The translations under genes were made by a program, and so were the position numbers. A model generated the notes under the pieces. The model was given only the letters and a program-made list of their open reading frames with translations, was not told where the DNA came from and searched no databases. Below, piece by piece: positions 12,617-61,407 of a stretch of 64,000 nucleotides of DNA. How positions within the stretch are numbered: the first letter of the stretch is position 1; each line of letters opens with the position of its first letter. Origin of the DNA: an uncultured Clostridia bacterium (GTDB lineage Bacteria; Bacillota; Clostridia; TANB77; CAG-508); the NCBI GenBank assembly GCA_934133005.1, contig CAKPAI010000002.1, positions 132,657 to 196,656 of the forward strand. The letters are read 5' to 3'.

Positions 12617-12946
12617 TTATTTTATTTCTATATTTACACCAGCTGGTAGCTCCATTTTGCTTAAGCTTTCAACTGTTTTTTGTGTTGGGTATAGAATATC
12701 TATAACTCTTTTATGTGTTCTCATTTCAAATTGTTCTCTTGAATCTTTATGTTTGTGTGGAGAACGTAAAATTGTTACTATTTCCTTTTCTGTTGGTAAT
12801 GGAATAGGTCCTGAAACTTTAGCTCCTGTTCTTTTAGCAGTATCTACTATTTTTTCAGCAGACTGTTCTAAAAGTTGTGCATCATAAGCTTTAAGTCTTA
12901 TTCTGATTTTACCGTTTGTTACCTCTGTTGTTTTTGTGTTTGCCAT
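12617..12946 (-). CDS. rpsJ: 30S ribosomal protein S10
   Basis: 109 aa; [17 protein letters not shown] typical of uS10; first gene of the cluster. Confidence 0.92.
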
Positions 12947-13176: not shown

Positions 13177-13205
13177 ATTATATACTCTTTCTAGTTTATT
13201 GTCAA
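13177..13205 (-). promoter_or_regulatory. sigma-A type promoter of the S10 operon (TTGACA-17 nt-TATAAT)
   Basis: On the minus strand, TTGACA (13205..13200) is spaced 17 nt from TATAAT (13182..13177). It sits ~230 nt upstream of rpsJ. Confidence 0.6.
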
Positions 13206-13240: not shown

Positions 13241-13916
13241 TTATCTAACTTCTACTTCTTCTTTCTTCTTCTCTTGCTCTGCAATTTTTATTTCTGGATA
13301 CATTTTGTATAATGTTTCTTCTGCAGAATATGTATGTAGAATTCCTCCAACCACCTCAAAATATTGTGGTAAATTATTCAAAACATCAGCTCTATCATAT
13401 TTTATTTCATCCATTACTCTCAAAAATTCAGATTTCTTATAATGAGAGTATGACAACATTCCATTTACACAATCTTTTTCTACTTCTTTATTCCAATATT
13501 GAACTTCAACTTCCGGAAATAAATTTCTATCAAGCTGTCTTCTTTTTAATACTTCATCTTTCATATGTACCATTTGGTGTAACCCTTTATAATTTGTTTT
13601 TAATTTTTTCTTGTGGTCTTTAATTTGGTCTACCTCAAAAAACCTTTCTAGCTCTTCTATTATAATTTGTAATTCGCTTTCTTGTGCTATAATTCTTACT
13701 CCAAAACAGTCATCTAATTTTTTTCCTTTTTTTACATTTCCGCATTGCTGACCTATAACTTTTTATTCTTCCTGTAACTTTTACATTCTCAGATATTCTC
13801 CCTGCTTTTTGTAATGCTTGTATTACACGGCCTATCATCATTATTGTTGCCTTATATCCATTCTCTTGCCCTGCTATTTTGCTTTCATATTGACTCCTCG
13901 TATAACCGTCTTCCAA
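13241..13916 (-). pseudogene. small alarmone synthetase (RelQ/RelP/YjbM-like RelA_SpoT-domain GTP pyrophosphokinase), interrupted by a frameshift in an A7 homopolymer
   Basis: Two ORFs (13710..13982 and 13241..13573) join into one ~225-aa product if one A is removed near 13713. The fused sequence VTGRIKSYRSAMRKCKKRKKLDDCFGVRIIAQ matches the RelA/SpoT synthetase motif GRxKxxxSIxxKxxRK...GxRI. Downstream motifs EVEVQYW / HYKK align to EVQIRTW / HWAYK of Rel. A TTG start at 13916 has AGGAGAGGTG upstream. Confidence 0.55.
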
Positions 13917-14033
13917 ATTATTATTCACCTCTCCTTTTTTTGGCGCGTCATTTATTATACAACAAGTCTTTGTATTTTTCAATTATTTCTTATCTTCAAA
14001 ATTCGACATTTTATATCATTTTTCAACTATAAT

Positions 14034-14066
14034 ATAAAAAAAATACTCCTTAATGGAGCATTTTTT
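14034..14066 (-). terminator. rho-independent terminator downstream of spoVG
   Basis: On the minus strand, ATGCUCC-AUUAA-GGAGUAU hairpin followed by U8. Confidence 0.5.
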
Positions 14067-14074
14067 ATTATATA

Positions 14075-14371
14075 TTATTCAACATCTTGGTTTTCTGACT
14101 CAGCTATAGGCATTGGATCCTCTGCTTTATCATAAGCTTCAAGTATAGCTTCTTGTATCATATTTCTTACATCTTGATTGATTGGATGAGCTATATCTAT
14201 AAACTTTCCATTTTTTTCTCTTCTAGGCATAGCCATGAATAAACCATCTTTACCTTCTATTACTTTAATTTCATGAACAACAAATCCACCATCAATTGTT
14301 ATAGAAGCAATAGCTTTCATTCTATTTCCTGAATTTACTTTTCTTATTTTTACGTCTGTGATTTCCATCTG
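14075..14371 (-). CDS. spoVG: septation/sporulation regulator SpoVG
   Basis: ORF 14075..14416. The conserved 97-aa SpoVG begins at the internal ATG ([11 protein letters not shown]...). Confidence 0.88.
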
Positions 14372-14529
14372 AGCACCGCCTTCCAAAAGTTTATTTTTGT
14401 ACATTCCTATGTACATTTATATTATTCTCCATTAACTTGTTTTTTCCTTCTATATTTTTACAAAAATTTATCTTTTTTATTATTATAATTTTTGAGCACT
14501 TAGCTATTCGAAATTTAGCAAAAGAGGTA

Positions 14530-31214: not shown

Positions 31215-32024
31215 TTAATATTTATATTCTTTTAAATCATTTATGCTTTTTATCAATAATTGCTCTCCTTTTGATGTTGAAAGTGAGTCAATACTCATAT
31301 TTATTGAATATTTATTTGATATTCCTGTTGCAAGTACATCAAATTTTAAAGATTCATCATCATTTATTGTTATATAATCATCTTTTTCATAATCATAAAT
31401 TTCGATGCTTGTTCTATAATTTACAATAGCATATGATAATGGTGAAACAACATATTGATTTGCACCTATAGTAATAGTAGTAGTTTCTAAGAAAAAGTAC
31501 ATATCATTTCCATCATATAAAAAACTTCCGTTTACTTCTTCTTGATTATTCTTATTAAACTTTTTAATTTTTGATGTATAATTTTCTCTTATTATATTAG
31601 TAAATTTATCTAACTTATATATATCTCCAGTTGGCATTACAAGTTCCACCTGTGCTGGAATTAAAGCCTTACCTAAAACATCAGTATAATACATAGGTGT
31701 TGAATCTAAATACACCGTTTTTCCACCCTCTAGTACTAATTTTATATCATCATTTATTTGCTGAACATCCATAGAACCAGAATATTCTTGCTTTATTCCT
31801 GCAAAATATTGATAATATGATCCTCCTGATAAGTTAATTTTAGTTTGACTTGATACTATTGCATTAAATATTTGATATATTATAAATACAAAAGCTATAA
31901 TCACTGCAACAAGTGCAATTCTAATTACTTTATCATTACTTCCAAATTTTTTAATTTTTCTTTTGCTCTGTGATTTCTTTATTCTGTTTGCCAACTTTAT
32001 TTGCACTTCCTTTCTCTTTCTCAA
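31215..32024 (-). CDS. hypothetical membrane-anchored protein (F1-like ATPase locus)
   Basis: Basic N-tail plus one TM. Apparent TTG start with a 74-nt out-of-frame overlap with the upstream gene; the start is uncertain. Confidence 0.45.
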   Translation of the reverse strand: MRKRKEVQIKLANRIKKSQSKRKIKKFGSNDKVIRIALVAVIIAFVFIIYQIFNAIVSSQTKINLSGGSYYQYFAGIKQEYSGSMDVQQINDDIKLVLEGGKTVYLDSTPMYYTDVLGKALIPAQVELVMPTGDIYKLDKFTNIIRENYTSKIKKFNKNNQEEVNGSFLYDGNDMYFFLETTTITIGANQYVVSPLSYAIVNYRTSIEIYDYEKDDYITINDDESLKFDVLATGISNKYSINMSIDSLSTSKGEQLLIKSINDLKEYKY

Positions 32025-32541
32025 ACTCTTTATTTACTCTATCTTCCGATATCAAATCTATATCTCTTAGGAATATGTATGCTATTAGCATTAACACAAA
32101 TACAACTAAACATGTCTTAATTGTTAAAATTACAATAGAGTACTCAATATCTGCTAAATAATTATCCATTACATATACAAAGTATATCATTACAATCTGC
32201 ATCGCTGTACAAATTACTTGGTATACAATTCTTTTTCTAGTTATTATTACGTTTATTGCCGTCAATATAACAAGCATTATAAAACATACCCACATAGAAA
32301 ATTCTTGTATTGTTATTATAGCATAACATGCCAGAAATGTCTTTAGTATGACTATAGAAATTTTTAAAATATCAATTTTTTTCATTCTCAAAAATAGTCC
32401 ATATATGAATATCTTTGATTTTTTATCTTGCCTAAAGTTTCTTATTGCTAGATAACTTATACCTCCAATAAGAAACATTAGTACTAAGAAAGATATGAGT
32501 AGCCATCTAGACTCTTGTATATAATATAATACTAGTTCCAT
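31951..32541 (-). CDS. hypothetical polytopic membrane protein (F1-like ATPase locus)
   Basis: 4-5 predicted TM helices. Follows the epsilon-like gene after a 25-nt gap. Confidence 0.5.
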   Translation of the reverse strand: MELVLYYIQESRWLLISFLVLMFLIGGISYLAIRNFRQDKKSKIFIYGLFLRMKKIDILKISIVILKTFLACYAIITIQEFSMWVCFIMLVILTAINVIITRKRIVYQVICTAMQIVMIYFVYVMDNYLADIEYSIVILTIKTCLVVFVLMLIAYIFLRDIDLISEDRVNKEFEKEKGSANKVGKQNKEITEQKKN

Positions 32542-39207: not shown

Positions 39208-42200
39208 CTAATTATTTTTGTTTATATATGCTGTATTATTTATTGTGCCTACTAATGTGTTTCCTACAAACAAGTTCATTTGAATTGTATACGTTCCGCT
39301 TGACTTGAATGTCTCTGGTAATATTACTTTATAATATGAAACTCCAGAATTCTCGCTATCTTCTTCTTGTCTCCACGTAGGTGTAAATGTACCACTTTGT
39401 GTTTGGCTATTCGTTAAATTATACATTGTGTATGTTATTTTATCAATTTTTGTAATATTGTAATAGCTATCATAGAATCTCATTTCACAAGAATTTTCAT
39501 TTTGTACTAATGCTGTACTTCCTATTGCAACATCTTGATCATTTTCAATCTTACTTATACTATATTTTTCTTCTTTATCTTCTGTATTTCCATCATTGTT
39601 CCTGTCATATTTTAATTTTATAACTGCTATATAGCTATAAGTTCTATAATCAATACTGCTTTGTTGTACATACACTGAGAAATTTGTTCCATAGTCATTT
39701 ATATTGAATTTTTTCTCAGTTATAGCACTTCCTCCAATTGGAGTTGAATATATTGGAACTTCATTTTCTTCTGTAAATTCTGGAGAACCTCCTTTATATC
39801 TATATACATGTAATTCATATTCTCCATATTCTTGTCCTTGAATCATTGCATCTGGATCTTGAACGGTAGTTGTTACTCTGATGTAATCAATTTCATTATT
39901 ATTTTGATTTACTTTTTGTCTTCTCATTGTCAAACCTATCTTTGGCTCCTGCAATGTATCTAAAGTAAATTCTGCTTCTTCTGTTTCAATTTCAACAAGT
40001 GCTCCATTATAAGTAACCATTGGTGTTATCTTTAATATATATTTCTTATTTATGCTGAATGTATTATAATCTGGACTTATTGATATTTTTTCATTTATAG
40101 CATTTATTAAGTTTTCTGTTTCATATTTTGCATTAGTTACAATAAGCTCTCCATTTTCATTTATCTCATATTTTGAATTTTCGCCTCTAACTACATTATT
40201 ATCAGTAAGTGGTACTAATGTTGTACCATCAGCTTCATAGAATGCATATTTTGTAAATTCATACATATTTGACCTGTTTTGAGTTATTTTATAATCTATG
40301 TCTATATACTTTTCTTTATATTTTACAGCATCATACTTAATTGATATTGAATTAATTCCTATAGTTGCTAATGTTTCAAATTGATAAACAGCTCCAACTT
40401 CTTTTGTATCCATATCATATAAATATACATCGCTTACACCATCATTGTATCTGAATCTTATATAGTAATATTCAGCAGGTGATAAATCATCTAATACTAT
40501 AGTATTTTCAAATTCATTTTCTTGTAATAATTTTGTTATTACTGTATCACTTTTCCAATTTGGTTTAGCATCTTTATCTTTTGTATGGTATATCTCTATC
40601 GTTATTCCACCTGGAATTGTCATACTATTTGGTTTTATAAGTGAAGCACTAATTTCTGCTTTCTTTATACTTGTTTCTATTTTATTCATTTTTATTCCAG
40701 CTCTTAAACTTTGAATTGAAATAGTTTTTTCTGTTGCAAATTCTGTTTTTGCAATTTCTTTTTGAGTTATTATCATATCATTTTGTTTTAAGCCAGATTC
40801 AGTATATTGCATACTTAAAGTTACACCAGCAGTTCCATTGTTTATTGCATCAATGTTTGATATTCCAAGTCTTGCTTCGCTATTCTCTGCTGAGAAAGAA
40901 TAGTTATACATATTTCCTCCAATTTTATCTACTACTTCAAAGTTTGCATCATTTAAAGCTACATATGCGCCATTTGCATTTGTATATGCTGAATATTCAA
41001 ATGCATTTGTAGGAGCATATCCAATTACTCCATCATCATAATATAGAATTACTTCTATATTTGATTGTTTTCCTATAAAACTATCAAAATTACTATTTGT
41101 AGCTGCAAGTTCTAGTAAATCAACATCAAAGTAATAGTTATCATCATCGTTCACTTTTAATAACTTACTTGTCATTGTTTCTCCATTTTGTGTAAATTTA
41201 ACTTGAGCTGCTGCAATTCTTGAAGCTTTATCTCCGCTGAGCTTTAACCTAATACTATTAGGACTTTTATCATTATCATAAGCTATGCTTTCAATACTCA
41301 CATCATTACAATTTACAATTCCTTCAAATTTTTGTGTAACCATTGTTACAGTTTGATATACTTTTCCATTTTTTGCTTTATTTACGTTTTTATTATAGCT
41401 TAATGTAAATGTAACATTTTTCTGTGGTATATATATGCTTAGATTATCTAATTTTCCATCAGTTTTTACTTGAATATCACTATTTTGTATTGAACCATTT
41501 ACAGCAAGTATTAAATGAGCATATTCTCTTGTATCATTTTCGTTATATTGTAGAGCCGCATCCACATCTTTGCAAGAATATTTGTATGTTACTGTCGTAT
41601 CATCAGATGTTATTGGATACATTACAAAACTTGGATCTTGTTTTTGTGGATATAATATTTCTGTCTTTAATGTTTGTGTTGTATATTTTGAACTACCATC
41701 ATCTTCAGTTATATTAAGTGGCCATATTATATCATTTCCATTATTATCAGTATATGTTACTGTATATGAGAAGATATATCCATCACCTCTATGCAATTTT
41801 CCTGTTTCATTATCTTTTTCGATTGTATCAATTGTACCATAATCCAATTCGAATATTGCTGATGGAGCTTTATCTTGTGTCACAAAATTTAGTGTTTGTT
41901 TTAATTGTACTCTATTTCCATTATCGTCTGTTACATATTTTCCACTCTCATCTTTTTCATATATTGGATTTCCTTCAGCATCCCATACATAATATGTTAC
42001 AGATTTAGCACTTAAAGAACCAGTATTTGCAAACTTAGTTGATACAAAGTATCCAACTGCTGTGTTGTCTAATAAATTACTATCTTTTTCTAGACCATAT
42101 CTATTGGCTTCAGCATTTGTAATTACAGTAGCTGTTGGTCTTGCAGTATCTTCTGTAATATCTGCAGTCGTTCCTTTTCCTTTCACTATTATATATGCTG

Positions 42201-45060
42201 CTGTATATGTTTCTTTTGTTGATTTATTAGTATATGTTGTATCTCCTGTATTTATATCATCATCGTCAGCAGATTTAACTGGAATTTTATTTGTATACTG
42301 TGTTCCATCAACAGTAGCTGTTACAACAACTTGATAGTTTGCTTCAGTATAACTACTTTCATATCCACCACCTATTAAAGATGGAGTTACAACTAAGCTA
42401 TTTTCAAAGAATAAGTCTTGCAAACTGGCTACTTCTGTTGGATATTTTGCATTATCCACAACTTGATCAAAATTATTATTTGTTATTGTTCTTGACCAGC
42501 TATTATATTCACCACTATTTATGTCTCCAGATCCCTCATATACCATTATGTCTACACTAGATAAACTTTCTTCTGAGGAAATTGTATCAGCATCAAAACT
42601 AAGGTCAACAGTAAATGCGTTTCCAGCAGGTGCATTTTCTGGTACAGATAAATTAGCTGTTATTGGACTATACTTATCTGTTGTAATTATGCTACTTCCA
42701 ATATAAGCATTCTTATATCCTCCTGAAGTACTTTCTTCATCTTGTAAATCTACAGTTCCATATGCTGAGAATGTATATGATGTTTGTGCTTTTAATCCGT
42801 CTTTCTTATTTCCTTCTTTACCAAGATCAACGTTAATTCTTATTACACTATTTCCATCAACATCTTCTGTCTTTCCATATAATTTTCCATCTCCATATGC
42901 ATCAAGATTTGTTATTTTTAAATATGTTGTATTTTCAACTACGTCACTATAATAGCTTATTGTTAATGGATTTTGGTCATCTACTACTATTGTATTTTGG
43001 TTATCGATTATGTCTAAGTATCCAATTATTTCTGTTGTTTCAAAGTCATTGTTTGTTGCTTTTGTAAATTTAACCGTTGGGAAAGTTTTTCCATTTAATG
43101 AGAAAGCTCCTGCAATTGTACTCTCTACATCAACATATTTCTCATTGTCATATGTTGTCGCAATTACTTTAAATCCATATGATTTTCCTCTTATAATCGA
43201 ATCATTTGATTGCTCATTTCCTACATCTATAACAATATTTCTATCTGTTGTTTGTTTTTGATAAACAGGATTTTTTACATCATATGTTGTCTCATATAAA
43301 CCATCATCATTTAATATAGTTTTAAATTCATATACATAATATTCATATGATTTAATCGCAGAATCTTTATCTGTTACTTCATCAATATATAATGTAAATG
43401 TTCCATCTCTTTTATTTACAGCATAATTTAGCTTATCAATGCTTGCTTTTTCTTTTAAAGTTTGGCAGTTATAATATATTGCCCAATTTTCACCTTCTTG
43501 AACTGCTCCATTGTAACTTATATTTTTTACTTTTACTATATAATTTGTATTTGCCTCAAGTCCAGTAAATTCAACTTCTTCAATTCCGCCACTGTTTTTC
43601 TTTGTTTGATTTTGATTTATAATTTCATTACCATTAGCATCTAATAAATATATTTCCGCACTATCAACATTTGAATCTTTAAATTCTAGATTGAATGTAA
43701 GTGAATTTGCAGTATAAACTTCCTTGCTTATTTCAACACCTATTGAAGATGTTACAAATGTTTTATATAAGAAATTTTTTGTATATACATTGTCATTTAA
43801 AGTATATGTTGCAGTTGCTACTATTGAATAGCTTGTATCAGGTAATAATGTTTGAACATCTATTGGTATACTAAATGTTCCATATGCCTCTTCATCCATG
43901 TATACAACTTTTCCAGTTGCATTGTTTGTAATTTTTATAGTAACATTATCATTTTTTGATAATAAGTCTTCATCATCAGTAATTTGAACTGTTGCTTTTA
44001 TTCCTACTGAAGATATATCCATATCCTCTAATTTAAACTTAGGTTCAGTCTTTGATACTGTTTCATCAACTTTTGTTTCATTATTTTGTATATATTGATA
44101 AATAATATTTACTATTTCAAGGTTTACTTTAGTTTCATCATTTTCTATATTTGTATCAGTTGTTGTTCCTGCATTTGAACCACCATTTGTTCCACCGTTT
44201 CCACCATTTATTATTGTTGTTCCTGAATTGTTGTTATTTGTAGTATTTGTAATTGTTGTGCTACCGCCATTTCCGCCTGTAGTATTATCTATTTCTGTAT
44301 TTTCTTCTGTATTAGTGTTAGTATTTTTATTTTCATTTAAATCAATTAATGTAACATTATCATTAGAATTTATTACCATATCTTCTAAACTCATTTTGTT
44401 TTCATCATTTACACTAACAATTTTTGTTCCTAAATTTAACTTAACACCACTGCTTAATTCTATAAAAGAGTCTGAAGAAATTGTTTGATAACTGAATTCT
44501 TGATTATAAATATTAACAACCTCGCTATCAGAATACTCTACTTCTAGATATCCTGTTACATCTTTTGTATTTCCATTATTAAGTGTTACTTTCATATTAT
44601 TTGCTAAAATCAAATACTTTGTAGCAGATATTTTCCATATTGCTTCTTCAAAATTAACATCTTCTTTTAAATTTTGTACAGTATATCTATTTGAGACTTT
44701 TTTTATCTCTTTATTTGAAGCTACATTATAGTATACAATTGGATCATCATTTATTTTTGACAAATCTAATAAAACACCATCTTGTAACGATATAATATTT
44801 CCACTTGTATAGTGAATAAAATTATCATTACCTAGTGTAACCTTTGTTCCCTCTGTATCATTAAAAACTATTTGTTTATCATAAGATGTTGTATATTTCT
44901 CTTTTTCATAGAAATAATACCTATCTGATGAACCGTTTAAAATATATCCAGATTCAGCAAATTCCATCCTCTTACTTTTTTGTACATTTATTACATTAAA
45001 TGTAAGTACTGTTCCTAATATTAGTCCTATCATTATAAAAAATACAATATACTTTTTCAT
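39208..45060 (-). CDS. giant secreted/anchored surface protein (1950 aa) with multiple FN3-like/Ig-like repeats
   Basis: AAGGAG RBS, N-terminal signal/anchor MKKYIVFFIMIGLILGTVL, N/T-rich linker, repeated L-P-x-T-x-Y-x-[IV] FN3-like strands (LLPDTSYSIVATATY, LEANTNYIVKVKN). No C-terminal TM. Confidence 0.8.
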   Translation of the reverse strand: MKKYIVFFIMIGLILGTVLTFNVINVQKSKRMEFAESGYILNGSSDRYYFYEKEKYTTSYDKQIVFNDTEGTKVTLGNDNFIHYTSGNIISLQDGVLLDLSKINDDPIVYYNVASNKEIKKVSNRYTVQNLKEDVNFEEAIWKISATKYLILANNMKVTLNNGNTKDVTGYLEVEYSDSEVVNIYNQEFSYQTISSDSFIELSSGVKLNLGTKIVSVNDENKMSLEDMVINSNDNVTLIDLNENKNTNTNTEENTEIDNTTGGNGGSTTITNTTNNNNSGTTIINGGNGGTNGGSNAGTTTDTNIENDETKVNLEIVNIIYQYIQNNETKVDETVSKTEPKFKLEDMDISSVGIKATVQITDDEDLLSKNDNVTIKITNNATGKVVYMDEEAYGTFSIPIDVQTLLPDTSYSIVATATYTLNDNVYTKNFLYKTFVTSSIGVEISKEVYTANSLTFNLEFKDSNVDSAEIYLLDANGNEIINQNQTKKNSGGIEEVEFTGLEANTNYIVKVKNISYNGAVQEGENWAIYYNCQTLKEKASIDKLNYAVNKRDGTFTLYIDEVTDKDSAIKSYEYYVYEFKTILNDDGLYETTYDVKNPVYQKQTTDRNIVIDVGNEQSNDSIIRGKSYGFKVIATTYDNEKYVDVESTIAGAFSLNGKTFPTVKFTKATNNDFETTEIIGYLDIIDNQNTIVVDDQNPLTISYYSDVVENTTYLKITNLDAYGDGKLYGKTEDVDGNSVIRINVDLGKEGNKKDGLKAQTSYTFSAYGTVDLQDEESTSGGYKNAYIGSSIITTDKYSPITANLSVPENAPAGNAFTVDLSFDADTISSEESLSSVDIMVYEGSGDINSGEYNSWSRTITNNNFDQVVDNAKYPTEVASLQDLFFENSLVVTPSLIGGGYESSYTEANYQVVVTATVDGTQYTNKIPVKSADDDDINTGDTTYTNKSTKETYTAAYIIVKGKGTTADITEDTARPTATVITNAEANRYGLEKDSNLLDNTAVGYFVSTKFANTGSLSAKSVTYYVWDAEGNPIYEKDESGKYVTDDNGNRVQLKQTLNFVTQDKAPSAIFELDYGTIDTIEKDNETGKLHRGDGYIFSYTVTYTDNNGNDIIWPLNITEDDGSSKYTTQTLKTEILYPQKQDPSFVMYPITSDDTTVTYKYSCKDVDAALQYNENDTREYAHLILAVNGSIQNSDIQVKTDGKLDNLSIYIPQKNVTFTLSYNKNVNKAKNGKVYQTVTMVTQKFEGIVNCNDVSIESIAYDNDKSPNSIRLKLSGDKASRIAAAQVKFTQNGETMTSKLLKVNDDDNYYFDVDLLELAATNSNFDSFIGKQSNIEVILYYDDGVIGYAPTNAFEYSAYTNANGAYVALNDANFEVVDKIGGNMYNYSFSAENSEARLGISNIDAINNGTAGVTLSMQYTESGLKQNDMIITQKEIAKTEFATEKTISIQSLRAGIKMNKIETSIKKAEISASLIKPNSMTIPGGITIEIYHTKDKDAKPNWKSDTVITKLLQENEFENTIVLDDLSPAEYYYIRFRYNDGVSDVYLYDMDTKEVGAVYQFETLATIGINSISIKYDAVKYKEKYIDIDYKITQNRSNMYEFTKYAFYEADGTTLVPLTDNNVVRGENSKYEINENGELIVTNAKYETENLINAINEKISISPDYNTFSINKKYILKITPMVTYNGALVEIETEEAEFTLDTLQEPKIGLTMRRQKVNQNNNEIDYIRVTTTVQDPDAMIQGQEYGEYELHVYRYKGGSPEFTEENEVPIYSTPIGGSAITEKKFNINDYGTNFSVYVQQSSIDYRTYSYIAVIKLKYDRNNDGNTEDKEEKYSISKIENDQDVAIGSTALVQNENSCEMRFYDSYYNITKIDKITYTMYNLTNSQTQSGTFTPTWRQEEDSENSGVSYYKVILPETFKSSGTYTIQMNLFVGNTLVGTINNTAYINKNN

Positions 45061-45298: not shown

Positions 45299-48200
45299 TT
45301 ATCTATTACTTTTTCTATACATTACAATCAAAGCTAAAATTATTACTAAAACTATAATTGAAATCAATATAGTTCCTATATTTTGCATTGTTTTCTTTCC
45401 AGTAGATATGTTATTGTAATAGTTTGTTAATTCTTGACTCTTATTTATCTTTGCATTTTCTGTAGTTATAGTTGATGTTGTTGTATCTAAAAGTTCATTT
45501 GCACTATATACTACATAGTTTTGTGAATTTGAATCATATGCAGTTACATAACCTGCACTTGCGTTATTATTGCTACTTTGATTTGAGTTCGAAGGTTTTT
45601 CTCCTGTTGTATTTGTCTCAGTCATAGTATTATTCGAATTGCCACTATTTCCTGTTTCACTATTTTCAGTATTTTGCTTTAATTCAATTTCACTTGTTGC
45701 ATCAGCAATAGATTTTTTCTCTAATTTTTGTACTAACTCTTGAGCCTCTTTATAATCTTTTTCATCAATTTTATATGATAGATTTTCTAAACTCAATCCA
45801 TTTAATAAGTAACTTACAAAGTTTGTACTTTCATTATTTACTCCATTATCATATATTTCTTCACCAGTTATATAATTAAATCCATATACATTTCCTGTCG
45901 CAGAATATATTAAAACTATTTCACTGTCATTATTTAAGTTATTAGTCATTTGTATAATCTTTTCATTTTTAAAGTTTACTGGATATTTAATATCAGTTAG
46001 AAGATTATATATTTTACCATCAGTACCAAGAGTTGATTCATACTGCTTATTATTGTATGAATCTATTACTACAGAAGTTCCTACATTAGAGAACTTTCCA
46101 TCAATTACATACATAGTACCTTTTTTGATAAATATTTGTCCATCTTTGAATACATTTGTTCCATCTTCTTCTGTTACTTTTGTACAATGATAGAATGTTT
46201 GAACTTTTTTACCTAAATATGTGCTTTCTGTTATTGGAGTAATATTATCTAATAATTTCATTCCAGATACATTTCTAATATTTTTCATAGAACTTAAATC
46301 ATAAACATTTCCATTTGAATCTAGTACTTCGCTCTCATATAAGTTTGTAAAAGTTCCTTTTATTGTTCTTTTATTTGAATTTAGACTTCCATCTGATAGA
46401 TAGAAATATTCATCATTAGATATTGCAAGCATATTTCTTATATCATCTGCTTCAAAATCTTTTGTATCCCAATAATTAGCATTTGTAATTCTTATAGTAA
46501 ATGGAGATTTAAAATCATATTCAAAAGTATATACTCTTTGATTTATTTTTTGCTTTTCACTTATAATTTCGCCATTTGAAGTTACAGAAAATGTTGCACT
46601 TGTATTTGCCTTGCTAAATTCAATATTTATTTTATCTGCTCCTACAGTATATACATAAACTTGTGGCAAGTCTTCTTCCAATTGATCATCCTCATAATAT
46701 GCTACTGGCATAATCTCATCATCTAAAAGCATTAAATTTGCTAACGTTGCTTCACTTGCTAGTTGTTCACTAAACAATCTTATTGTAGCTTCACTATAAG
46801 TTATTGTTCTTTCTGGTATTGCAAATTCTTTAATAGTTACTCCCATTTCACTCCAATAAGTTTGTGCTGAATAATTTGGTTTTAGTGTTGGAAAATATCC
46901 AGATTTATAATTGTATCTTCCTGTACCAAAGTTTAAGCCTTCATTTCCTACAGCAACTTGTCCTATAACAGTAGAACCAATTATATTTCCTTCTTCATCA
47001 TACTCATACTCGTATTCATCCTCATAGATTCTTACATTTTTAGTATAATTACTTACAACTTTTAGCTCATCACTAGTTATCATTTTATAGTTTTCATTTT
47101 CTTCTACAATTCCTGATACTTGTGTTTTTGTAGCTAATAATTGGTTTTGCAAATTGCTTCCATTATATATGTAAATATTATTCATATATTTTGCTTGAAA
47201 TAACCCATAGTCAGAATTTTTAATTGATGCAATTCCCATATCAGCATATTTGCTTGATGTAGATATAACATCTGTTGCAATTAAATTACACTCAATAATA
47301 TTATATTTTTCAACATCAGGATCATAATTTATTTCTTTATATATTTCACCAATTAAGCCTCCTGCTGAACTTTTAGCAGATATATTTATTGTCTCATCAC
47401 TGTTTGCAATATAGTTATATTTTATTGTAGCTTTATATTGTAAGTTATTTAATTTGCTATTATCAAAATATCCTACTATTCCACCGGCGCCTTCTCCTGT
47501 TGCTGTTACATCAGTATTTACAGCATAACAGTATTGGATATTTCCAACTTGGCTTCCTCCTGCGATTCCACCAACATAATTTGCTCCTTTTACATAGCTA
47601 TCTTCTATATATGAATGCCACAAATAGTAATTGCTAGATTTTATTGAATTTGCTGAAGTTCCAACATAACCTGTATAGTATCCAACAATTCCTCCAACAT
47701 AATTTCCTCTTCCTGTAACTGTAGTATTATTAGTTACAGCTCCACCATGTATTGTTCCTCTCTCATATCCTGCAATTCCTCCAACATAACCAGAACCAAT
47801 AATCGTTACATTTGATACATATGCTCCAGCAGTTGAATAATTTGAATTATTAGATGTTGATATTGAAGTATTAGTATACTCATTATATCCAACAGCTCCA
47901 CCTACATAATTTCCAGAAGCCGTTACTTGGCAGTTCTCAACTTTTAATTCTTTTATTCTTCCATTTGTCCATCCAACAGAACCAGATACATAGTTTCTAC
48001 CTATTATTTCTTGGTTTGTTCCTGTAGATAGTGAGTTATTTAAAGTAGCATTATTGTTATTTAGTCTTCCTACATTTCCTGCTACATAATCTAATCCTTT
48101 AATATAATTGTTTCTAGATACAGGGTTTGAAACTGATGACCAACCAGTATTTCCATAATTTCCACCTACATAAGAACCCGTTGCACTCTTTGTTTTGTAG

Positions 48201-51200
48201 TCACTTACTTTATTTAGATTATTTGTTGCAATTATTATGTTATTTTCTGAAGTTGCACTTATGCCACTCCATCCTCCTTGTTGACCATTGTTGCCTCCAA
48301 CATAATTTGCTCCAAGTATAATATTATTTGTTGAAACCATATTATTGGTTGAACTTGCACCATTTCCACAATTTGCACCTACATAATTTCCAGTTCCTAA
48401 AATTATACTATTGCTTACTTTTGAGTTATAGAAAGTTGATCCACTTCCACCATATTCACCAATCGCTCCTCCAATGATACTTCTTCCTTTTATTAAGTAA
48501 TCGGTTTCTTCATCGCTATCTTTTTTACCATTTTCAGAATATTGATATGCATAAACTCCATTGATTGTATTTTGTGTACTTCCGAATATTCCACCAGCAT
48601 AATCGCCCGATGCAGTTACCTGTAAATATGTTCCTTTTATGTTACTTGTTGATCCCAATGACGCTGTATATCCACATAATGAACCAACATAGCTTTCACC
48701 TGTAACATTCATTCTATTTAGTGTAATATTATTAAATCTACCAGAAACTGCTCTTGATACTACTCCGACGTAATTCTTTCCGCCTTCGATAGTTATGTTA
48801 TCAAAAGTACAATCCTTCATTTCTCCTCTTAGTATGCTAATGATTCCACTATAATTTCCAGTACATGTAATCTTAGAATCTTTAAAGTGAATATTTTCGC
48901 AATTTGTTTTTATTTCTTTTATAAGACCAGAACTATCTCCTACTGATATATTTACATTTTTAAATGAATATTCTGTACTTCCTTCTAGTCTACCAATTAC
49001 AACATTTGTTACAATATGATCAACTGTACTAAAATCAATATCTCCAGTTATTCTTACATTTTGACCTATGTAATTTTTTCCTGAATTTTCAAAAAAGTCA
49101 TTCCACTCATCAGCATTTGAAATACCTTTATATAATGTAACTTTTATTTTCGTTGATATTTCTTTTTGTACAAAGTTTGTTCCATCTCTTGTATAAATTA
49201 TATTTTCAATTTTATAACTTTCAAAAGCTTTATTTGGAGTTGCAACAAATTTTGCTATTGTAAGTCCTGTTCCTTCCTCCTTTGATGTAGTCCAGCTTCC
49301 ATCAACAACAGACATATCATTGTCTTCTATTGTTACACCTGTTAAACTTAAATCATTAGGATTTTCAAATTTCATTTCTACTGTAACATTTGTTTTGTCT
49401 TCTGATGGTGTAGAAGTAATACTATATAGTTTTAAATCATTATCAAGTGTAATTAGTTTTTGATTTGCAAGCAATCCACTCTTTGATGTATTCATTAATT
49501 GTGGGAAATATCTATTATTTAATAAATTCATTTCTTGACCATTTTGAACTATCGTTCTTGCAAAATTATCATCAAATTTTAACAAGTTTGCAAAAGTATT
49601 GTCTGTAAATATTTCATTATCTTTTAATAGTTTAGTTGCTCCATATAAATCTGTTTTCTTTTCGCCACTCATTAATTGGTCTGCATAAGCATAGTTATTA
49701 TATGAAGTAGTTCCGCCATTGTTTCCTAAAATTCTATTGAAGTTATATATACCTGTGTTTCCTGCTATATAAATATTTCCTAAGAATAAACAGTTTTGTA
49801 CTCCTGAAGCACCAGTATCACTATAACCTGCAATACCTCCAAAGTAAATATTTCCACTTGTAGTTTTTGTATTTAAGTTAATCAAACTATAACAATTCTT
49901 TACATAGCAAGAACCATATTTTCCAAATCCTAAAATTCCTCCTGCATTTGTAAATGTATTTATCCTTCCTGTAGTATAACAGTTTTGAATATAGAATACT
50001 GGTGAACCTGCTTTTACTCTTTCATCTGAGTCATGTCTTTTATAACCAACAATTCCTCCGATACCATCTACTTGAGTTACACTCGTTGCTTCAACATTAT
50101 AATTTTGTACATAACAGTTTTGTATATATGTAGTAACACCACCAAATGCATATAAGTTTCCAACAATTCCTCCTGCATCAATATACAATGAATTTGGAGA
50201 ATTAAATGTCAAATCAAATCCTTGAACAGAACAGTTTTGTACTTTTATACTGTCAGCTGGATTACTACTTCCACTACTAATTGAACCTACTATTCCTCCA
50301 TATTTTCCATTGTCTTTATTATATGACACATTCATTTCCATATTTGATATACTAACATTATCAATTAGTATATTATCAGTCATATCTGCTCTAGCAATCA
50401 TTCCTGCATATTGAGAATTTGTATTTATTGTAAAGTTATTTATATTAAGATTTTTTATTTCACCTTCTGCAAATCCTGCAAATAACGATTCTGTTCCACT
50501 TATGTTATTTATAGTGTGCACTTTTCCTTCATATTCGCCATCTAAGTAGCCTGTAAATGTTCCTGTTATATATGGGCTATATTCAGAATCAGCAAAATTT
50601 AAATCATTAACTAATCTATAGTTTTGTATTAATCCACTTACGCCATTTTCATCAGTTTGATCTATATTTGTCCAGTCTTTTTCGTTTGCTATCTTCTTTA
50701 CAAATCTTACATCAATATATCTTGTTCCCATTGCTTCATTTTCACCATATACTGATGTTTTTATGACACCATTTGCCTGCTTACTTTGAATCTTTGATAC
50801 ATTGTAAGTATCTAAGAATGAAGTTGGATTATTTAATAACATATATACTGTACTTACTCTCTTGCTATATGATTGGCTTAAAATTACTTCATCCAAATAA
50901 TCAACATCAATTACACTTATTGTTGTTCCTGCAGGGTTATAAACTCTAAATGAAACAAGTTTTGTATTTTCATCGGTCAAATCAACATTATTTAATGTAA
51001 TATATGAATTTATTTCATTTCTAACCTTATCTGTTATATCTAATGAACTTATATCATTATTTTCTATTACAGAACCTGAAAGTATATCAATTATTTCATT
51101 ACCTGTAATATCTATTTTTACATTGTCTTGTTTAGGCATACAATAATTTAGTTTTAATTGAGGATAATATCCATTTGAAACTAAATTTTCAACAGTAAAG

Positions 51201-54200
51201 TTTTTATAACTATTAGCATTTAATATTACTTCTTGAACCCCTGGTTCGTAAAGTCCTGTTGATGCTGTTTTAGTATTATAATCACTGTCATCATACATTA
51301 CTTCACAGAAATAGTAACAATCATTTACATTTGTTCCTGCATTTTTATTCAAAATACTTGGTCCTAAATATTGTTCTTTATTTTCTGCATCTAATTCTCC
51401 TGAATATTCAAAATCTTCATATGCAGTAATAATTGACATTACAGAATATACATTTCTTATAGTAGCACTGCATGATGGTCTTGATATTATCTGTCCTAAG
51501 TTATTAGTTACAGGTGGATATCCTAAATCATATACAATATTTCCTGCATAAGAATATGTTCCACTTGTATGATTTATTTTTATTGTTGTTGTATTAAATA
51601 TATTTTGCATTAGTCCATTATTTCCATCTAATTGAACTGCTACTCCTCCAATATATCTATAGTCATATGCAGCTATATCTCCATATGTTTCAATTCCTTG
51701 CCCATAAATATATCCATTTTGTATTGTTCCATGTGAATATAAGCAAACTCCTGCTATATATTGTGATGCATATAATGGTACTTCATAATCTATGATAAAG
51801 TTATCTATTTTTCCTGAATTGTCATATCCAAGTAAAGCGACATTTGCTCTTGCTTTTTGAGTTGCCTTCTTTAGTCTAACAATTACATTATCTATGTTTC
51901 CTTCATTATATAAGAATAGTGAATAATATCCATCTTCTTTTGCAGCTGGTACTTCAACAATTTTATCTCCAACTACAGTTACTGTCATTTTAGGAGATAC
52001 ACTATTTAAAGAATAATCTATTACAATATTCTTTAAATCAGCTTCTGCTCCTAATTTATAGAATATATATGAAGTTACTTCTCTTTTTGTTGTTAGCGAA
52101 TAAGTATCTTTAGTTATGGTTTTTCCATTGAAGTCTATTGTTCCATTAAATGTTATATTTGGATTTCCAAATGTATAAGATGTTGCTCCTCCAGCATTAC
52201 TTAAATCTATATCATTTAATAGTATATAATTTCCATTAGGTTGTATCTCTAGAAATTCATCAATTGTTGATATACTCTTAATTTCAGTTTTAGCATTTAC
52301 GTCATATTCAAAAGTTACTTGTGACAATACATATTCCCTACTATATTGCCTTATTATAAGCTCTACTGTGTAATCAATAGTATCATTTCCACTTTCTTCA
52401 ATAATATATTTTTTCACTTCTTCGATCATAGTTACAGAATCATAATTATAATCAAATTCTTGTACTTTTGTTTGATTTGAAGAATTTTTAGAAGTTATTT
52501 TTATATAATATTTACATGAATTTGCACTTTCATCAAATGTAACATGTTTTTCATCTATAAATTTAACATCCATATTTGCATAGAATGTATATTTATATTT
52601 TTCATAACTTGTCGCAGAATTTCCTTTTTCTGCTTGTAAATCTTTTACTTTCAAATAATAGTCTTTTTGATTTATAACTTCTTCATCATCAGTTATTTTT
52701 TCACCATCTTCATTGGTCTCGCCAGGAATTATATCCACTTGTGAATAATCTTCTAGGTAAAAACCTACAAAACCATCATCTGGTACAGTTATTGTTTGTA
52801 CAAATTCTGCCCAATTATCAGTTGTTATTCCACTAAGTTCAGTTATATTTCTGCCAATTCCTTTTCCTAATTGCATATATATTTTTGGTGTTCCTGTTGC
52901 TACAGGATTGTTATCTTTCCATTGATATTGTGCCTTAAACGATAATGTAACTTTTTCACCCACATAATTTCCTAAATCATAAACATAACATTGATTTGAT
53001 AAGAATGTAATTTGATTACTATTTTCATCATATGTCTTACCATAATTATACTTAGATCTTGTTTCATAATTTACAACATCATTATCTAATACATACTCTG
53101 TCTCTAGTACACCAAATGTTTTTGCATACCAATTGTTGTTAGATGATACATCTATAAGATTCTTTCCATTATCTGCAATTTCTCTTTGAAGTCCTATTAA
53201 ATCTATACTTCCTCCAAGACCACTTGTAGTAAACTCTTTTTTACCAATTTGATAATTGTTTTGAACTTTATTAGCATTATTAGTCTCATTATACGAAGCC
53301 GCCTCACAAGTGAATGTATAAATTTCATTTTCTGTTAAGCCTTCATATGTTAATCTTATCCATCTGTTTGTAGGAATTTTAGTTGTGCTTTTTACTTCTT
53401 CTTTGTTCTCATCTATTACTTCTATAGTTGGCAAATATTCTTTTGAAAATCTGTCAACCAATCTTACTATTGTTAGATTATCAGCAACTGCTCCATCTTC
53501 ATCGTCAATATAAATATCCATATCAATTAAGTTTGTAGTTGCAATTACATTTCTTATTTGAAGGGTTGCTGTTTTCTTGTTTGTCATAAAACTATTTGTA
53601 GTATATGATGTTACAATTTCTTTTTCTACACTTCCTTGTTTTGCTACTGCCTTTAACTCAATTTTATATGTTGTATTTGATTCCAAGTTTTCAAATAAAT
53701 TTGCAATTCCATCAGTTTTTAATGAATTTATATCGTCCATAAATACTGATTTAATTTCATTATTCTTACTATCTCTTATAATCATAGTGACATTTTGTAA
53801 AATATTAACTAGCCTATGATCTGTTTTGTCTGTATTTATTGTGGTCCTTAGATTTGCACTACTTGATGTTATATCATTATCTATATCATATGTTACTTCT
53901 AATTTTAAACTACCTAATTTACTTAAACTTAATGTAGTAAATGTTGCACTTCCAATTTCTTGATCTTGTTTTATTCCATTACCATCACCTATATCAAAGT
54001 CACCAAAAACTCTAATTGTATAAGTATTTTCTGGATCTAAATCGCTAAATTCTAATTTATTATCACCTATTTCTAAGTTATCTCTTTTTACTACTTCACC
54101 ATTACTTGATAATAAAATATATCTATAATTATCTATCGTTACTTTATCTTCATTTATTAAAGATACATTTATCGTTACACTTGTTACATTTTGTGCATTT

Positions 54201-58547: not shown

Positions 58548-59195
58548 TTAAAATTCTCTTGGTTTTAATTCTAAATAAATCGGTTTTTCCTCTTTTATTT
58601 CGGTTGGCTTGCCATGTCCTGGATATACAATAGTCTCATCAGGTAATTTCAATAGCTTGTTTGTTATTGAATCTATTATACTCACAAAAGAACTAGTTGG
58701 AAGATCAGTTCTTCCCCAAGTTCCCCTAAATAATGTATCTCCAGAAAATAATAGTCCTTCTTCTTTACAATACAAACTACTGCTTCCTATTGTATGACCA
58801 GGAGTTGCAATAATATCAAATTCTAAGTCTCCAATATGAATTTTATCTCCATCATCAACTCTTGAATCCGCTTCTAATTCAATATCTCCCATATTTATAC
58901 ATTCACTTAAATTTATATCTTCATTATAAAGTCCTTCAGCATCAGCTCTTAAAATCAGTATCTTTCCACCCTTTGCTTTTTTTAATTCAGTTACTGCTCC
59001 AATATGATCAGCATGACAATGTGTTAAATAAATATATTTTAGCCTTGCCTCTAATATATCTAGCATTTCTATTATTTTTTCTGGTTCTCCACCAGGATCA
59101 ATCACCATTGTCTCTTTTGAAATTTCATCTTCTACTATATAACAGTTCGTAGGTTCTCCTAAAGCTGTTTCAACCTTTAATATTTTTAATATCAT
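58548..59195 (-). CDS. MBL-fold metallo-hydrolase
   Basis: HCHADH motif (THCHADHIGAV), 215 aa. Conserved position between rel and hisS. Confidence 0.8.
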   Translation of the reverse strand: MILKILKVETALGEPTNCYIVEDEISKETMVIDPGGEPEKIIEMLDILEARLKYIYLTHCHADHIGAVTELKKAKGGKILILRADAEGLYNEDINLSECINMGDIELEADSRVDDGDKIHIGDLEFDIIATPGHTIGSSSLYCKEEGLLFSGDTLFRGTWGRTDLPTSSFVSIIDSITNKLLKLPDETIVYPGHGKPTEIKEEKPIYLELKPREF

Positions 59196-59205
59196 CTTTT
59201 GCCTC

Positions 59206-61407
59206 TTATTTATTTCTTCTTACTTCGTACACGCTATCAACTTTTCTTAATTGTTTTATTACATCATTTAATCTTGAAATATCACTTACCTCTATAGTTA
59301 ATTCTGTAATAACAATTCTTTCTTTTGAAACTCTTGAATTTACATTAATCATTGGTATTTTTTCAGTTGTTACAGCATTTATTATATCTGCAAGTAATCC
59401 ATCTCTATCATTTGAAAGTATTGTAATATCAACATTGTAACTTGATGGTTTATCTGTATACCAAGCAACATCAATCATTCTTCCTTGCTCTGTACCAAAC
59501 AAGTCGCCTATATTTTTGCAATCTTTACGATGAACAGAAACGCCTCTTCCTTTTGTAATGTAACCAACAATTTCATCGCCTGGTACAGGGTTACAACATT
59601 TAGAAAGTTTTACTAGGCAGTTATCTATTCCTTTAACTATTACTCCACTATTAGATGGTTTAATTGTATTTTTCTTTTCTTTTGAAAGCTCTGCTATTTT
59701 TTGTTCAATATTTTCTTCTTTATGATCTTTTCTATATTCTTCTAATAATTTGGAAATTATTTTATTAGCAGTTATAGCTCCAAATCCTAAAGCTGAATAC
59801 ATATCATCCTCAGTTTGATAATTATATCTTGCCATTGCAACTTTTAAATATTCATCTTTTAAAAGCTCTTGATGACTTCCACCTAATTTTTTAACTTCTT
59901 TTTCAAGAATTTCTTTTCCTTTTATAATGTTATCTTCACGTTCGTTTTTCTTAAACCAACGTTGAATTCTTGTTTTTGCAGTTGTACTTTTAACAAATTT
60001 TAACCAATCTCTACTTGGTCCTTTTGAATTGTCTGATGTCATTATTTCAATAATATCACCATTTTTAAGGGATGTAACAATTGGCATCATTTTGCTATTT
60101 ATTTTGCAACCCGTCATTTTGTTTCCAACTTCTTCATGTATGCTGTATGCAAAGTCTATTGGTGTTGCTCCCCTTGGTAGTACTAAAATTTTTCCTTTTG
60201 GAGTAAACACATAAACTTCATCTTCAAATAATTCTGTTTTTAATGTATTTAAAAACTCTTGTGGGTCTTCTATATCTTTTTGCCATTCCAAAGTTTCTCT
60301 TAACCATGAAAGCTTATCTTCAGATACTTTTACGTTTGCCTTTTTTCCGCCCATGAAGCTTGCTTCTTTGTAAGCCCAATGCGCAGCAATACCAAATTCT
60401 GCAATTCTATGCATATCCCATGTACGAATTTGAACTTCAAATGGAGTTCCTTTTGGTCCAATTAAAGTTGTATGTAATGATTGGTACATGTTTGGCTTTG
60501 GCACAGATATATAATCTTTAAATCTTCCTGGCATTGGATTATATAATTCATGAACTACACCTAAAGCTGCATAACAATCTTTTACTGAATTTACAATTAT
60601 TCTTAATGCAAATAAATCATATATTTGGTCAAGAGTTTTATTATCTCTTTGCATTTTTCTATATATACTATATAAATGTTTTGCACGACCTGTAATTTCG
60701 GCATCAATTTTTTGTTTTTTTAATTGGACTCTTATTTCATCTATAATTTGGTCAATAAATTTTAATCTTTCTTCACGCTTTTTATTTATTCCTTCAACTA
60801 GTTCTCTGTAATCTTCTGGATATAAATATTTGAAAGATAGATCTTCAAGCTCCCATTTTAATGTGTACATACCAAGTCTATTTGCAAGTGGTGCATACAA
60901 ATCCATTGTTTCTCTTGCATTTGCAATTTGTCTATCTCTTGTTAAAAATTTAAGAGTTCTCATGTTATGAAGTCTATCTGCAAGTTTTATCATAATTACT
61001 CTTATGTCTTTTCCCATTGCCAAGAACATTTTTCTGTAATTTTCAACCTGTTCTTCTTCTTTACTTGTATAATTTAACTTTCCAAGCTTAGTAACACCAT
61101 CAACCATTTCAGCAATTTCTTCTGAAAATGTTTTTGCAAGTTCTTCTCTAGTTACTTCTGTATCCTCTACAACATCATGTAAAAGGGCTGCAGATATTGT
61201 GCTTTCATCAAGTCCAAGCTCTGCTAAAGTGTAAGCTACTTGCACTGGATGAATTATATATGGTTCTCCTGAACGTCTTAATTGGTCACCATGTTTTTCT
61301 TTTGCAAAATCATAAGCTTTTCTTATTTTTTTTAAATCAGCTCTTCTATTCATTTTTTTAGCTGTTTCTAATACCTCTTCTATTGTATGATTTATAACTT
61401 CTGACAA
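59206..61407 (-). CDS. rel: bifunctional (p)ppGpp synthetase/hydrolase Rel
   Basis: 733 aa. HD domain (HDVVEDT), synthetase motifs (GRAKHLYSIYRKM, EVQIRTWDMH), TGS and ACT regions. Confidence 0.92.
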   Translation of the reverse strand: MSEVINHTIEEVLETAKKMNRRADLKKIRKAYDFAKEKHGDQLRRSGEPYIIHPVQVAYTLAELGLDESTISAALLHDVVEDTEVTREELAKTFSEEIAEMVDGVTKLGKLNYTSKEEEQVENYRKMFLAMGKDIRVIMIKLADRLHNMRTLKFLTRDRQIANARETMDLYAPLANRLGMYTLKWELEDLSFKYLYPEDYRELVEGINKKREERLKFIDQIIDEIRVQLKKQKIDAEITGRAKHLYSIYRKMQRDNKTLDQIYDLFALRIIVNSVKDCYAALGVVHELYNPMPGRFKDYISVPKPNMYQSLHTTLIGPKGTPFEVQIRTWDMHRIAEFGIAAHWAYKEASFMGGKKANVKVSEDKLSWLRETLEWQKDIEDPQEFLNTLKTELFEDEVYVFTPKGKILVLPRGATPIDFAYSIHEEVGNKMTGCKINSKMMPIVTSLKNGDIIEIMTSDNSKGPSRDWLKFVKSTTAKTRIQRWFKKNEREDNIIKGKEILEKEVKKLGGSHQELLKDEYLKVAMARYNYQTEDDMYSALGFGAITANKIISKLLEEYRKDHKEENIEQKIAELSKEKKNTIKPSNSGVIVKGIDNCLVKLSKCCNPVPGDEIVGYITKGRGVSVHRKDCKNIGDLFGTEQGRMIDVAWYTDKPSSYNVDITILSNDRDGLLADIINAVTTEKIPMINVNSRVSKERIVITELTIEVSDISRLNDVIKQLRKVDSVYEVRRNK

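Follow-up and report, generated by a model that had tools for sequence, protein, structure and literature searches.

We analysed a 64,000-nucleotide stretch of DNA (the window) from an uncultured Clostridia bacterium (GenBank assembly GCA_934133005.1, contig CAKPAI010000002.1, positions 132,657 to 196,656 of the forward strand) and found that its minus strand carries a gene of 224 codons, running from 13916 to 13241 in window coordinates, whose reading frame changes by +1 within AAAAAAAGGAAAAAAA (13733..13718), a site composed of two runs of seven A separated by GG (A7-GG-A7). The frameshift is real and species-wide, the frame obtained by fusing the two parts is the homologous frame, and both frames are under purifying selection. 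Since the two halves are selected despite the fixed break, the cell probably reads through it by slipping one base: we lean, with some reserve, towards the view that recoding at the first A7 run of this frameshifted gene, which does not vary, yields the full-length enzyme. The parts of the gene are as follows.

13710..13916, minus strand: frame-0 part, 68 codons from a TTG start at 13916 to a TGA stop at 13712..13710
13718..13733, minus strand: shift site AAAAAAAGGAAAAAAA, with run 1 at 13733..13727 and run 2 at 13724..13718
13241..13726, minus strand: +1-frame part, from GGA at 13726 (for a slip in run 2, from TTA at 13717) to a TAA stop at 13243..13241

The initial annotation of this DNA had reported two open reading frames (ORFs) on the minus strand, at 13710..13982 and 13241..13573, and had taken them for pieces of a single protein with a RelA/SpoT synthetase domain, of the small alarmone synthetase (SAS) type, broken in a poly-A tract. 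Both ORFs exist, and they are indeed pieces of one such protein, as shown by a Pfam match to the fused frame and by homologues that span the junction. The position of the break is likewise borne out: the +1 frame is open from 13762 through the TAA at 13243..13241, and the only way to join the two frames is a +1 shift within 13762..13713, the interval that holds A7-GG-A7. Deleting one A from either run yields the 224-codon ORF. The frame-0 part encodes an N-terminal helix, strand beta-1 and the ATP-binding motif GRIKSxxS; the +1-frame part encodes the catalytic DDCFGVRII, YKGLH, EVQ and HYK motifs, followed by a C-terminal helical/beta extension.

The predicted protein and its family

Neither fragment alone has a Pfam match. 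By contrast, the fused 224-residue product matches the profile to which the initial annotation had pointed, RelA_SpoT (PF04607), from position 1 to position 111 of 113 (E=9.3e-5, 23.1 bits): the domain is detected end to end in the fused frame, albeit with a score below the gathering cut-off of 27, and thus short of gathering-level membership. An exhaustive HMMER search recovered 70 relatives among 1.84 billion cluster representatives. Intact homologues (216-250 residues, 26-40% identity) align over the junction without interruption, and 29 of the 30 aligned family members match RelA_SpoT at E<0.01, the best at 3.8e-10. Searched against the PDB, the family profile retrieves RelSeq (1vj7, E=5.4e-7), RelQ/YjbM (5dec, E=4.8e-6), RelP (6fgj, E=6.3e-6) and FaRel2 (8pu3, E=5.4e-5).

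AlphaFold2 models the fused protein with a predicted local distance difference test score (pLDDT) of 92 and a predicted template modelling score (pTM) of 0.88. The central sheet of the model draws on both parts of the gene, with strand 46-51 contributed by the frame-0 part and strands 71-76, 93-100, 112-118 and 136-141 by the +1 part; the 68-residue product of frame 0 has no predicted fold of its own. All 50 of the 50 PDB matches listed by Foldseek belong to the RelA/SpoT homologue (RSH) family (RelP, RelQ, Rel/RelA, SpoT, CapRel), with a probability of 1.00 and E-values down to 7e-7. The active-site residues R50, K52, S56, D69, G72, R74, Y109, H113, E137, Q139, Y159 and K160 are present, and the RSH motifs R-x-K-x3-S, D-x2-G-x-R, Y-x3-H, E-x-Q and Y-K are all found. 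Over 30 family members the RSH active-site residues are invariant or nearly so, and the window protein keeps every invariant one; the motif assignments of the initial annotation hold, GRIKSxxS, DDCFGVRI, EVQ and HYK falling at conserved family positions. As judged from these comparisons, the predicted product is a single-domain nucleotide pyrophosphokinase of the RelA/SpoT type, though a divergent one, and thus a SAS in the broad sense; GDP/GTP, ATP and tRNA are candidate acceptors of the pyrophosphate from ATP.

The more precise label RelQ had to be given up. No NCBIfam model matched at E<=1, identity to the RelQ and RelP structures is 13-19%, and RelQ, RelP, long Rel and FaRel2 all lie at much the same distance from the family; NCBIfam, PHROGs and PADLOC gave no classification of the window protein. 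Like RelQ and RelP (SAS1 and SAS2 of Firmicutes), it is a single domain with the synthetase fold, and RelP (6ex0) and RelQ (5dec) are its top structural matches. Unlike them, it has E[IV]Q[YF][WK] in place of EIQIRT, an N-terminal helix of its own and a conserved C-terminal extension (LP..Y/W....LS..ETL.K.YP).

Membership of the toxSAS toxin-antitoxin systems was also considered and rejected, there being no bicistronic or tricistronic antitoxin arrangement in about 20 species and no PADLOC match. The family resembles the toxSAS enzymes (FaRel, FaRel2, PhRel, CapRel; PMC7229694) in that these are divergent SAS subfamilies, FaRel2 and CapRel being among its sequence or structure matches. It differs from them in its position between spoVG and the S10 operon, which is strictly conserved in about 20 species, and in its distant relatives, which lie in operons with Peptidase_U32 and methyltransferase genes. 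Indeed, the order murC (opposite strand), spoVG, SAS-like gene, rpsJ-rplC-rplD is kept in about 20 species, from which it follows that inheritance in the clade is vertical and that the gene does not belong to a toxin-antitoxin pair. It is the basis of a small SAS-like family, hitherto unnamed, at a fixed position beside the S10 operon.

Two distant members of the family (P0017 and P0026, about 30% identity; L101:165-1657 and L102:120-2223) overlap a downstream Peptidase_U32 gene by 1-4 nucleotides, and the member in L102 is also preceded by an O-methyltransferase gene (PCMT/Methyltransf_3). This pairing resembles the tRNA/rRNA hydroxylation-methylation operon of Bacilli (trmR-trhP type) and hints at a link between the SAS-like family and RNA modification.

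The frameshift is fixed across the species

Of the 35 sequences of the species, namely the window and 34 independent metagenome assemblies (MEGAHIT, SPAdes and Logan) from the Hadza and several other cohorts, all 35 have the same junction. Cluster look-ups gave the same picture at the protein level: each of the 13 N-fragment variants (on 49 contigs) terminates in ...KIR*, some 270 contigs have C-fragments (108-140 residues) and nothing else of the gene, and no intact allele was found among the representatives of 15 billion proteins. The frameshift is common to lineages that differ in murC by a synonymous difference (pS) of 0.23 (window versus L027) and are about 95% identical at the nucleotide level; it holds, together with the selection on two frames described below, within the species and this sister lineage of about 95% identity only. 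A DNA pattern scan of a metagenome contig collection for junction variants returned 0 matches, the species being absent from that collection.

Several apparent frameshifts elsewhere were discarded. P0057/L002, a candidate second frameshifted relative, is a chimeric 550-nucleotide scaffold joining infC to the gene, and L092-L095 and L099 are low-coverage contigs running into unrelated sequence. In the orthologue at L087:1300-2060, from another species (398-kb contig VOFC01001312.1), two frame errors at poly-A runs compensate each other, one of them at the same Lys-Lys site; we read these as homopolymer sequencing errors, the site being error-prone in some assemblies.

Both reading frames are under purifying selection

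Segregating substitutions were classed frame by frame, using frameshift-carrying sequences only, and the numbers of synonymous changes were compared by binomial tests with the 18-20% expected by chance. The upstream part, read in frame 0, shows 12 synonymous versus 12 non-synonymous changes, that is, a ratio of non-synonymous to synonymous polymorphism (pN/pS) of 0.25 (P=0.001). The downstream part, read in the +1 frame, shows 21 versus 21 (pN/pS 0.22, P=2e-6). The signal is also present in the 45 codons from the junction to the first ATG, where the +1 frame has 9 synonymous versus 5 non-synonymous changes (pN/pS 0.12, P=1e-4). No synonymous excess was found in the other two frames of either part, and a smaller, earlier sample agrees with these results.

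The 66 segregating substitutions create no stop codon, as against 3.8-4.6 expected (P about 0.01-0.02), and the length variants, all of them in-frame and situated in the acidic tail, are of +3 and -2 codons. With pN/pS at about 0.02 for the neighbouring murC and about 0.12 for spoVG, the split gene is less constrained than its neighbours, yet it is clearly not neutral. The nearest genome with an intact gene, L006, has ribosomal proteins 96-100% identical to those of the window and a MurC 89% identical, whereas the SAS-like protein is only about 53-55% identical, so the family evolves fast. At family-conserved positions, 15 lineage-specific changes were counted in the split gene versus 11 in L006 (P=0.56), which is no significant acceleration; this relative-rate test is uninformative for dating the lesion.

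The shift site and the proposed recoding

Run 1 is A7 throughout the 35 sequences, whereas run 2 reads A7 in 29 of them and GA6 in the other 6. The GA6 form, the only common variant at the junction, leaves the amino acid of the +1 frame unchanged (GGA to GGG) but replaces Lys by Glu in frame 0 (AAA to GAA), as expected if decoding has already shifted at run 1. A slip in run 1 would give CKKGKKLDD, and three relatives have K-G-K at the junction position (L021 SIKGKKVDD, L016 KLKGKVIDD and P0006 KKGKEIED); many orthologues have an in-frame A7 (Lys-Lys) exactly there. The initial annotation had fused the frames as KKRKKLDD, which corresponds to a slip in run 2. This is possible, but both the K-G-K pattern of the orthologues and the population data favour the run-1 product, KKGKKLDD. 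The predicted junction peptide is accordingly one of two, CKKGKKLDDCFGVR or CKKRKKLDDCFGVR.

Two routes to the full-length protein can be envisaged. In the first, RNA polymerase would slip and drop one A in a fraction of the transcripts, as in IS1447; both A7 runs reach the length, at least seven A, at which slippage of the IS1447 kind occurs. In the second, the ribosome would slip by +1, with tRNA-Lys moving from AAA to AAA while a rare AGG codon waits in the A site. The frame-0 codon that follows run 1 is indeed AGG, used 1.8 times per 1000 codons as compared with 26.9 for AGA, and in AAA-AAA-AGG a slippery P-site codon, which re-pairs as AAA after the +1 slip, is combined with a slow A-site codon. 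Rare codons account for 5 of the 16 Arg codons of the split gene (P=0.003): CGG, for instance, occurs 0 times in the 17,026 codons of the other genes of the window, yet it is present 4 codons upstream of the site. A Shine-Dalgarno-like AAGGA lies between the two runs, 3 nucleotides before the run-2 slip codon, a spacing like that of prfB. There are no tRNA genes within the 64-kb window.

By either route the message would be decoded as ...CKKGKKLDDCFG..., the default product being the 68-residue fragment and the 224-residue enzyme being made at a reduced level, so that the frameshift would set a low, possibly condition-dependent, amount of enzyme. Recoding itself, the route used and the substrate of the enzyme are matters of inference.

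A bolder version of the ribosomal route would make the frameshift a translational starvation sensor: limiting charged tRNA-Arg would stall the ribosome, the stall would promote the +1 slip, and the slip would yield the full-length alarmone synthetase. The slip site has three rare Arg codons (AGG, CGG and AGG) no more than about 10 codons away; the last of them, AGG, would occupy the A site with tRNA-Lys on AAA. We consider this version improbable; were it true, alarmone synthesis would be tied to the charging of tRNA with no need for a ribosome-bound sensor of the RelA type, and this in a gene immediately upstream of the S10 ribosomal-protein operon.

Comparison with known recoding systems

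Known programmed +1 frameshifts include those of prfB (RF2), at CUU-UGA-C with an upstream Shine-Dalgarno sequence, and of yeast Ty1, at CUU-AGG-C with a rare tRNA-Arg(CCU). The site described here is like them in its perfect P-site re-pairing (AAA to AAA), in its rare A-site AGG, a geometry like that of Ty1, and in its AAGGA, which recalls the Shine-Dalgarno sequence of prfB; heptamers of the Ty1 type are mentioned in PMC2790909. Unlike prfB and Ty1, the split gene has no stop codon in the A site, no autoregulatory logic like that of RF2 and a site that is not conserved across genera.

The closest likeness on the transcriptional side is to IS1447, an IS3-family element of Clostridium thermocellum in which transcripts that have lost one A, seen as about 17% of cDNA clones, supply the +1 frame, and for which seven A are enough (PMC6211511). 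In both cases the host is Clostridial, a +1 change joins two ORFs at an A run, and the default product is the short upstream ORF. IS1447, however, encodes a mobile-element transposase and has an A9 run and an adjacent stem-loop, conserved across many elements, whereas the split gene encodes a chromosomal housekeeping-type enzyme and has A7-GG-A7, no detectable structure, a distribution limited to one species and a slippage that is putative. A further parallel is provided by "pseudo-pseudogenes" and translationally corrected indels, that is, genes annotated as disrupted that may yield low amounts of full-length protein through decoding errors at the lesion (PMC9122581; review PMC5009743). There, expression was measured, whereas our argument is drawn from population-genetic signatures.

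Expression signals, neighbouring genes and other features of the window

The signals around the split gene and its neighbours are as follows.

13954..13982, minus strand: sigma-70-type promoter, TTGAAA and TATAAT with a 17-nucleotide spacer, 11 of 12 consensus matches
13926..13934, minus strand: Shine-Dalgarno-like GGAGAGGTG, 9 nucleotides upstream of the TTG start, as read from sequence
14038..14066, minus strand: intrinsic terminator of spoVG, upstream of the frameshifted gene
14075..14416: spoVG, upstream neighbour of the frameshifted gene
12617..12946: rpsJ, first-named gene of the S10 ribosomal-protein operon segment rpsJ-rplC-rplD, downstream neighbour

The promoter hexamers are identical in all aligned conspecific sequences, with changes in the spacer only; one haplotype has GGAAAGGTG at the Shine-Dalgarno-like site. 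The TTG at 13982, with which the upstream ORF had been listed as beginning, belongs to the -35 box and is therefore not the start codon. The real start is most likely the TTG at 13916, which lies behind GGAGAGGTG and aligns with the initiator Met of the orthologues. Because the spoVG terminator (14066..14038) intervenes, the frameshifted gene is a separate transcription unit. Between the window and L001, spoVG is 100% identical and the frame-0 part of the split gene is about 9% different.

On the downstream side, a perfect-consensus promoter (TTGACA, 17-nucleotide spacer, TATAAT; 13205..13177, minus strand) precedes a match to the S10-Clostridia leader RF03136 (13162..13069, minus strand; 32.4 bits, under the gathering threshold of 35.1, E=1.7e-4). 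A scan of the whole window with Rfam at gathering thresholds gave no matches. No terminator is predicted from the stop at 13241 to the promoter at 13205..13177, so read-through into the S10 operon is possible.

The window also contains, as the initial annotation had stated, a long Rel at 59206..61407, with HD_4, RelA_SpoT, TGS, AH/RIS and ACT domains; it is flanked on the minus strand by a metallo-beta-lactamase-fold protein (58548..59195) and by RecJ (61433..63121). At 31215..32541 (minus strand), ORFs of 196 and 269 residues with no Pfam matches overlap by 74 nucleotides at the A-rich CAAAAGAAAAATTAAAAAATTTGG; they are probably two adjacent membrane-protein genes, the downstream one having been given a false start at a TTG too far upstream, and a second A-run frame change is the less likely alternative. 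The minus strand also has a pair of neighbouring giant ORFs, of 1950 residues (39208..45060) and 3484 residues (45299..55753).

Alternatives to recoding

The most serious alternative is that the gene is a recently fixed pseudogene. An A6-to-A7 insertion would have spread by a sweep accompanied by recombination, or by recurrent slippage; the polymorphism would predate the lesion and no full-length protein would be made. We judge this rather unlikely, albeit deserving of careful consideration, and if it were true the locus would be a young pseudogene of little interest. The following observations weigh against recoding or speak for a pseudogene, some of them both.

To begin with, the frameshift is found in one species and is absent from the others. 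A pattern scan of GTDB species genomes found 21 orthologues, all intact across the junction; the pattern was built from alignment A4, since A2 and A3 vary too much for this purpose. All 21 come from uncultured human-gut Clostridia assemblies, among them Clostridium sp. CAG:245 and CAG:780, and the loci retrieved have 27-32% G+C. Of 69 further loci from metagenomes, those on contigs that could be interpreted have intact genes too; a scan of genome contigs with the single fused protein as query gave no match. Classical programmed frameshifts are usually conserved more widely. Moreover, no stimulatory RNA structure was detected around the site (z-scores -0.86, -0.07 and -0.17), and A7 lies at the lower limit for efficient transcriptional slippage. 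Seven positions strongly conserved in the family are altered in the species (e.g. N60K and L196Y), so some relaxed constraint is possible; other family members are sometimes damaged, P0010, P0016 and P0038 being fragmentary or internally deleted copies in other species (they are uninformative on the shift site itself); and the long Rel could cover alarmone synthesis.

The pattern of diversity points the same way. The split gene is a hot spot of within-species nucleotide diversity (pi 0.02-0.06, versus 0.003 at most in spoVG), its haplotypes are mosaic, which reveals recombination inside the gene, and spoVG is 99-100% identical where the split gene differs by 5-9%. The 50-nucleotide bin at the junction shows a mild dip in diversity (pi 0.008, versus 0.017-0.027 in the adjacent bins). 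A young frameshift transferred to older haplotypes, or one that had arisen several times, could mimic the selection signal. The evidence for recoding is indirect, being drawn from population-genetic signatures.

Against the pseudogene, polymorphisms lie 3-50 nucleotides from the junction on either side in every deep haplotype class, so that very short recombination tracts or repeated identical mutations would be needed. No second lesion has accumulated in the 35 sequences or in about 40 protein variants, where about 4 stops would be expected and the only indels are in-frame. No surviving intact allele was found in the searches described above, the rate of change is not significantly accelerated, and the near-consensus promoter and the Shine-Dalgarno-like sequence have been kept, which we count in favour of recoding. 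The rule put forward in the initial annotation, that split orthologues would make the gene a pseudogene, proved too simple: the conspecific sequences are all split, yet both of their frames are selected, and the other species are intact.

Phase variation at the DNA level, also raised initially, is considerably less plausible. The A tracts would be contingency repeats switching the gene ON (A6) or OFF (A7) by slipped-strand mispairing, with the gut population sampled nearly always in the OFF state. Two adjacent homopolymer tracts do lie exactly at the break, and occasional ON phases would maintain selection on both frames. However, the total length of the tract differs in 0 of the 35 assembled sequences, and neither the roughly 270 contigs nor the 15 billion proteins include an in-frame allele. 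In-frame A7 runs are also common and stable, both in the window, whose ORFs contain 30 of them, and at the same site in the orthologues, and A7 is shorter than typical hypermutable contingency tracts.

It is more improbable still that the gene encodes a split enzyme, in which the 68-residue N-fragment and a separately initiated C-fragment would assemble non-covalently. Selection on both halves would be accounted for, and gene callers do predict C-terminal ORFs of 110 or 137 residues. Yet the +1 frame of the window haplotype is devoid of potential start codons (ATG, GTG or TTG) from the junction to Met-115, and no Shine-Dalgarno sequence precedes the C-fragment. The start-less stretch of 45 codons, which holds the catalytic DDCFG and YKGLH, is nevertheless constrained, as judged from its 9 synonymous versus 5 non-synonymous changes, and this argues against separate initiation; in the model, moreover, the central beta-sheet interleaves strands of both halves.

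Lastly, a homopolymer sequencing or assembly error in the window, suggested by the nature of the break and by the two compensating poly-A errors of L087, is refuted by the recurrence of the same frameshift in 35 of 35 sequences, that is, in 34 further independent assemblies produced with three assemblers from several cohorts.

Implications

Bacterial cellular genes that need a frameshift for their expression are few, the usual examples being prfB and dnaX, and also copA; we know of none among the alarmone-making enzymes of the stringent response. Our search of the literature turned up no SAS gene that depends on a frameshift; the one SAS frameshift it brought to light is a strain-specific 32-bp deletion in relP* of C. 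glutamicum. At a more general level, the locus illustrates that a gene still under selection can be concealed behind a "pseudogene" call when the break falls in a homopolymer of a metagenome-assembled genome, and the approach used here, which looks for purifying selection frame by frame among haplotypes that already carry the frameshift, can be reused.

If the gene is recoded, A7GGA7 would be a compact 16-nucleotide cassette that can be tested in reporters. A potentially growth-inhibiting enzyme that must be kept at a low dose, as the likeness to toxSAS enzymes may suggest, would fit a frameshift that throttles expression: in this reduced-genome lineage of gut Clostridia, the frameshift would set or modulate the dose of a potentially growth-arresting enzyme.

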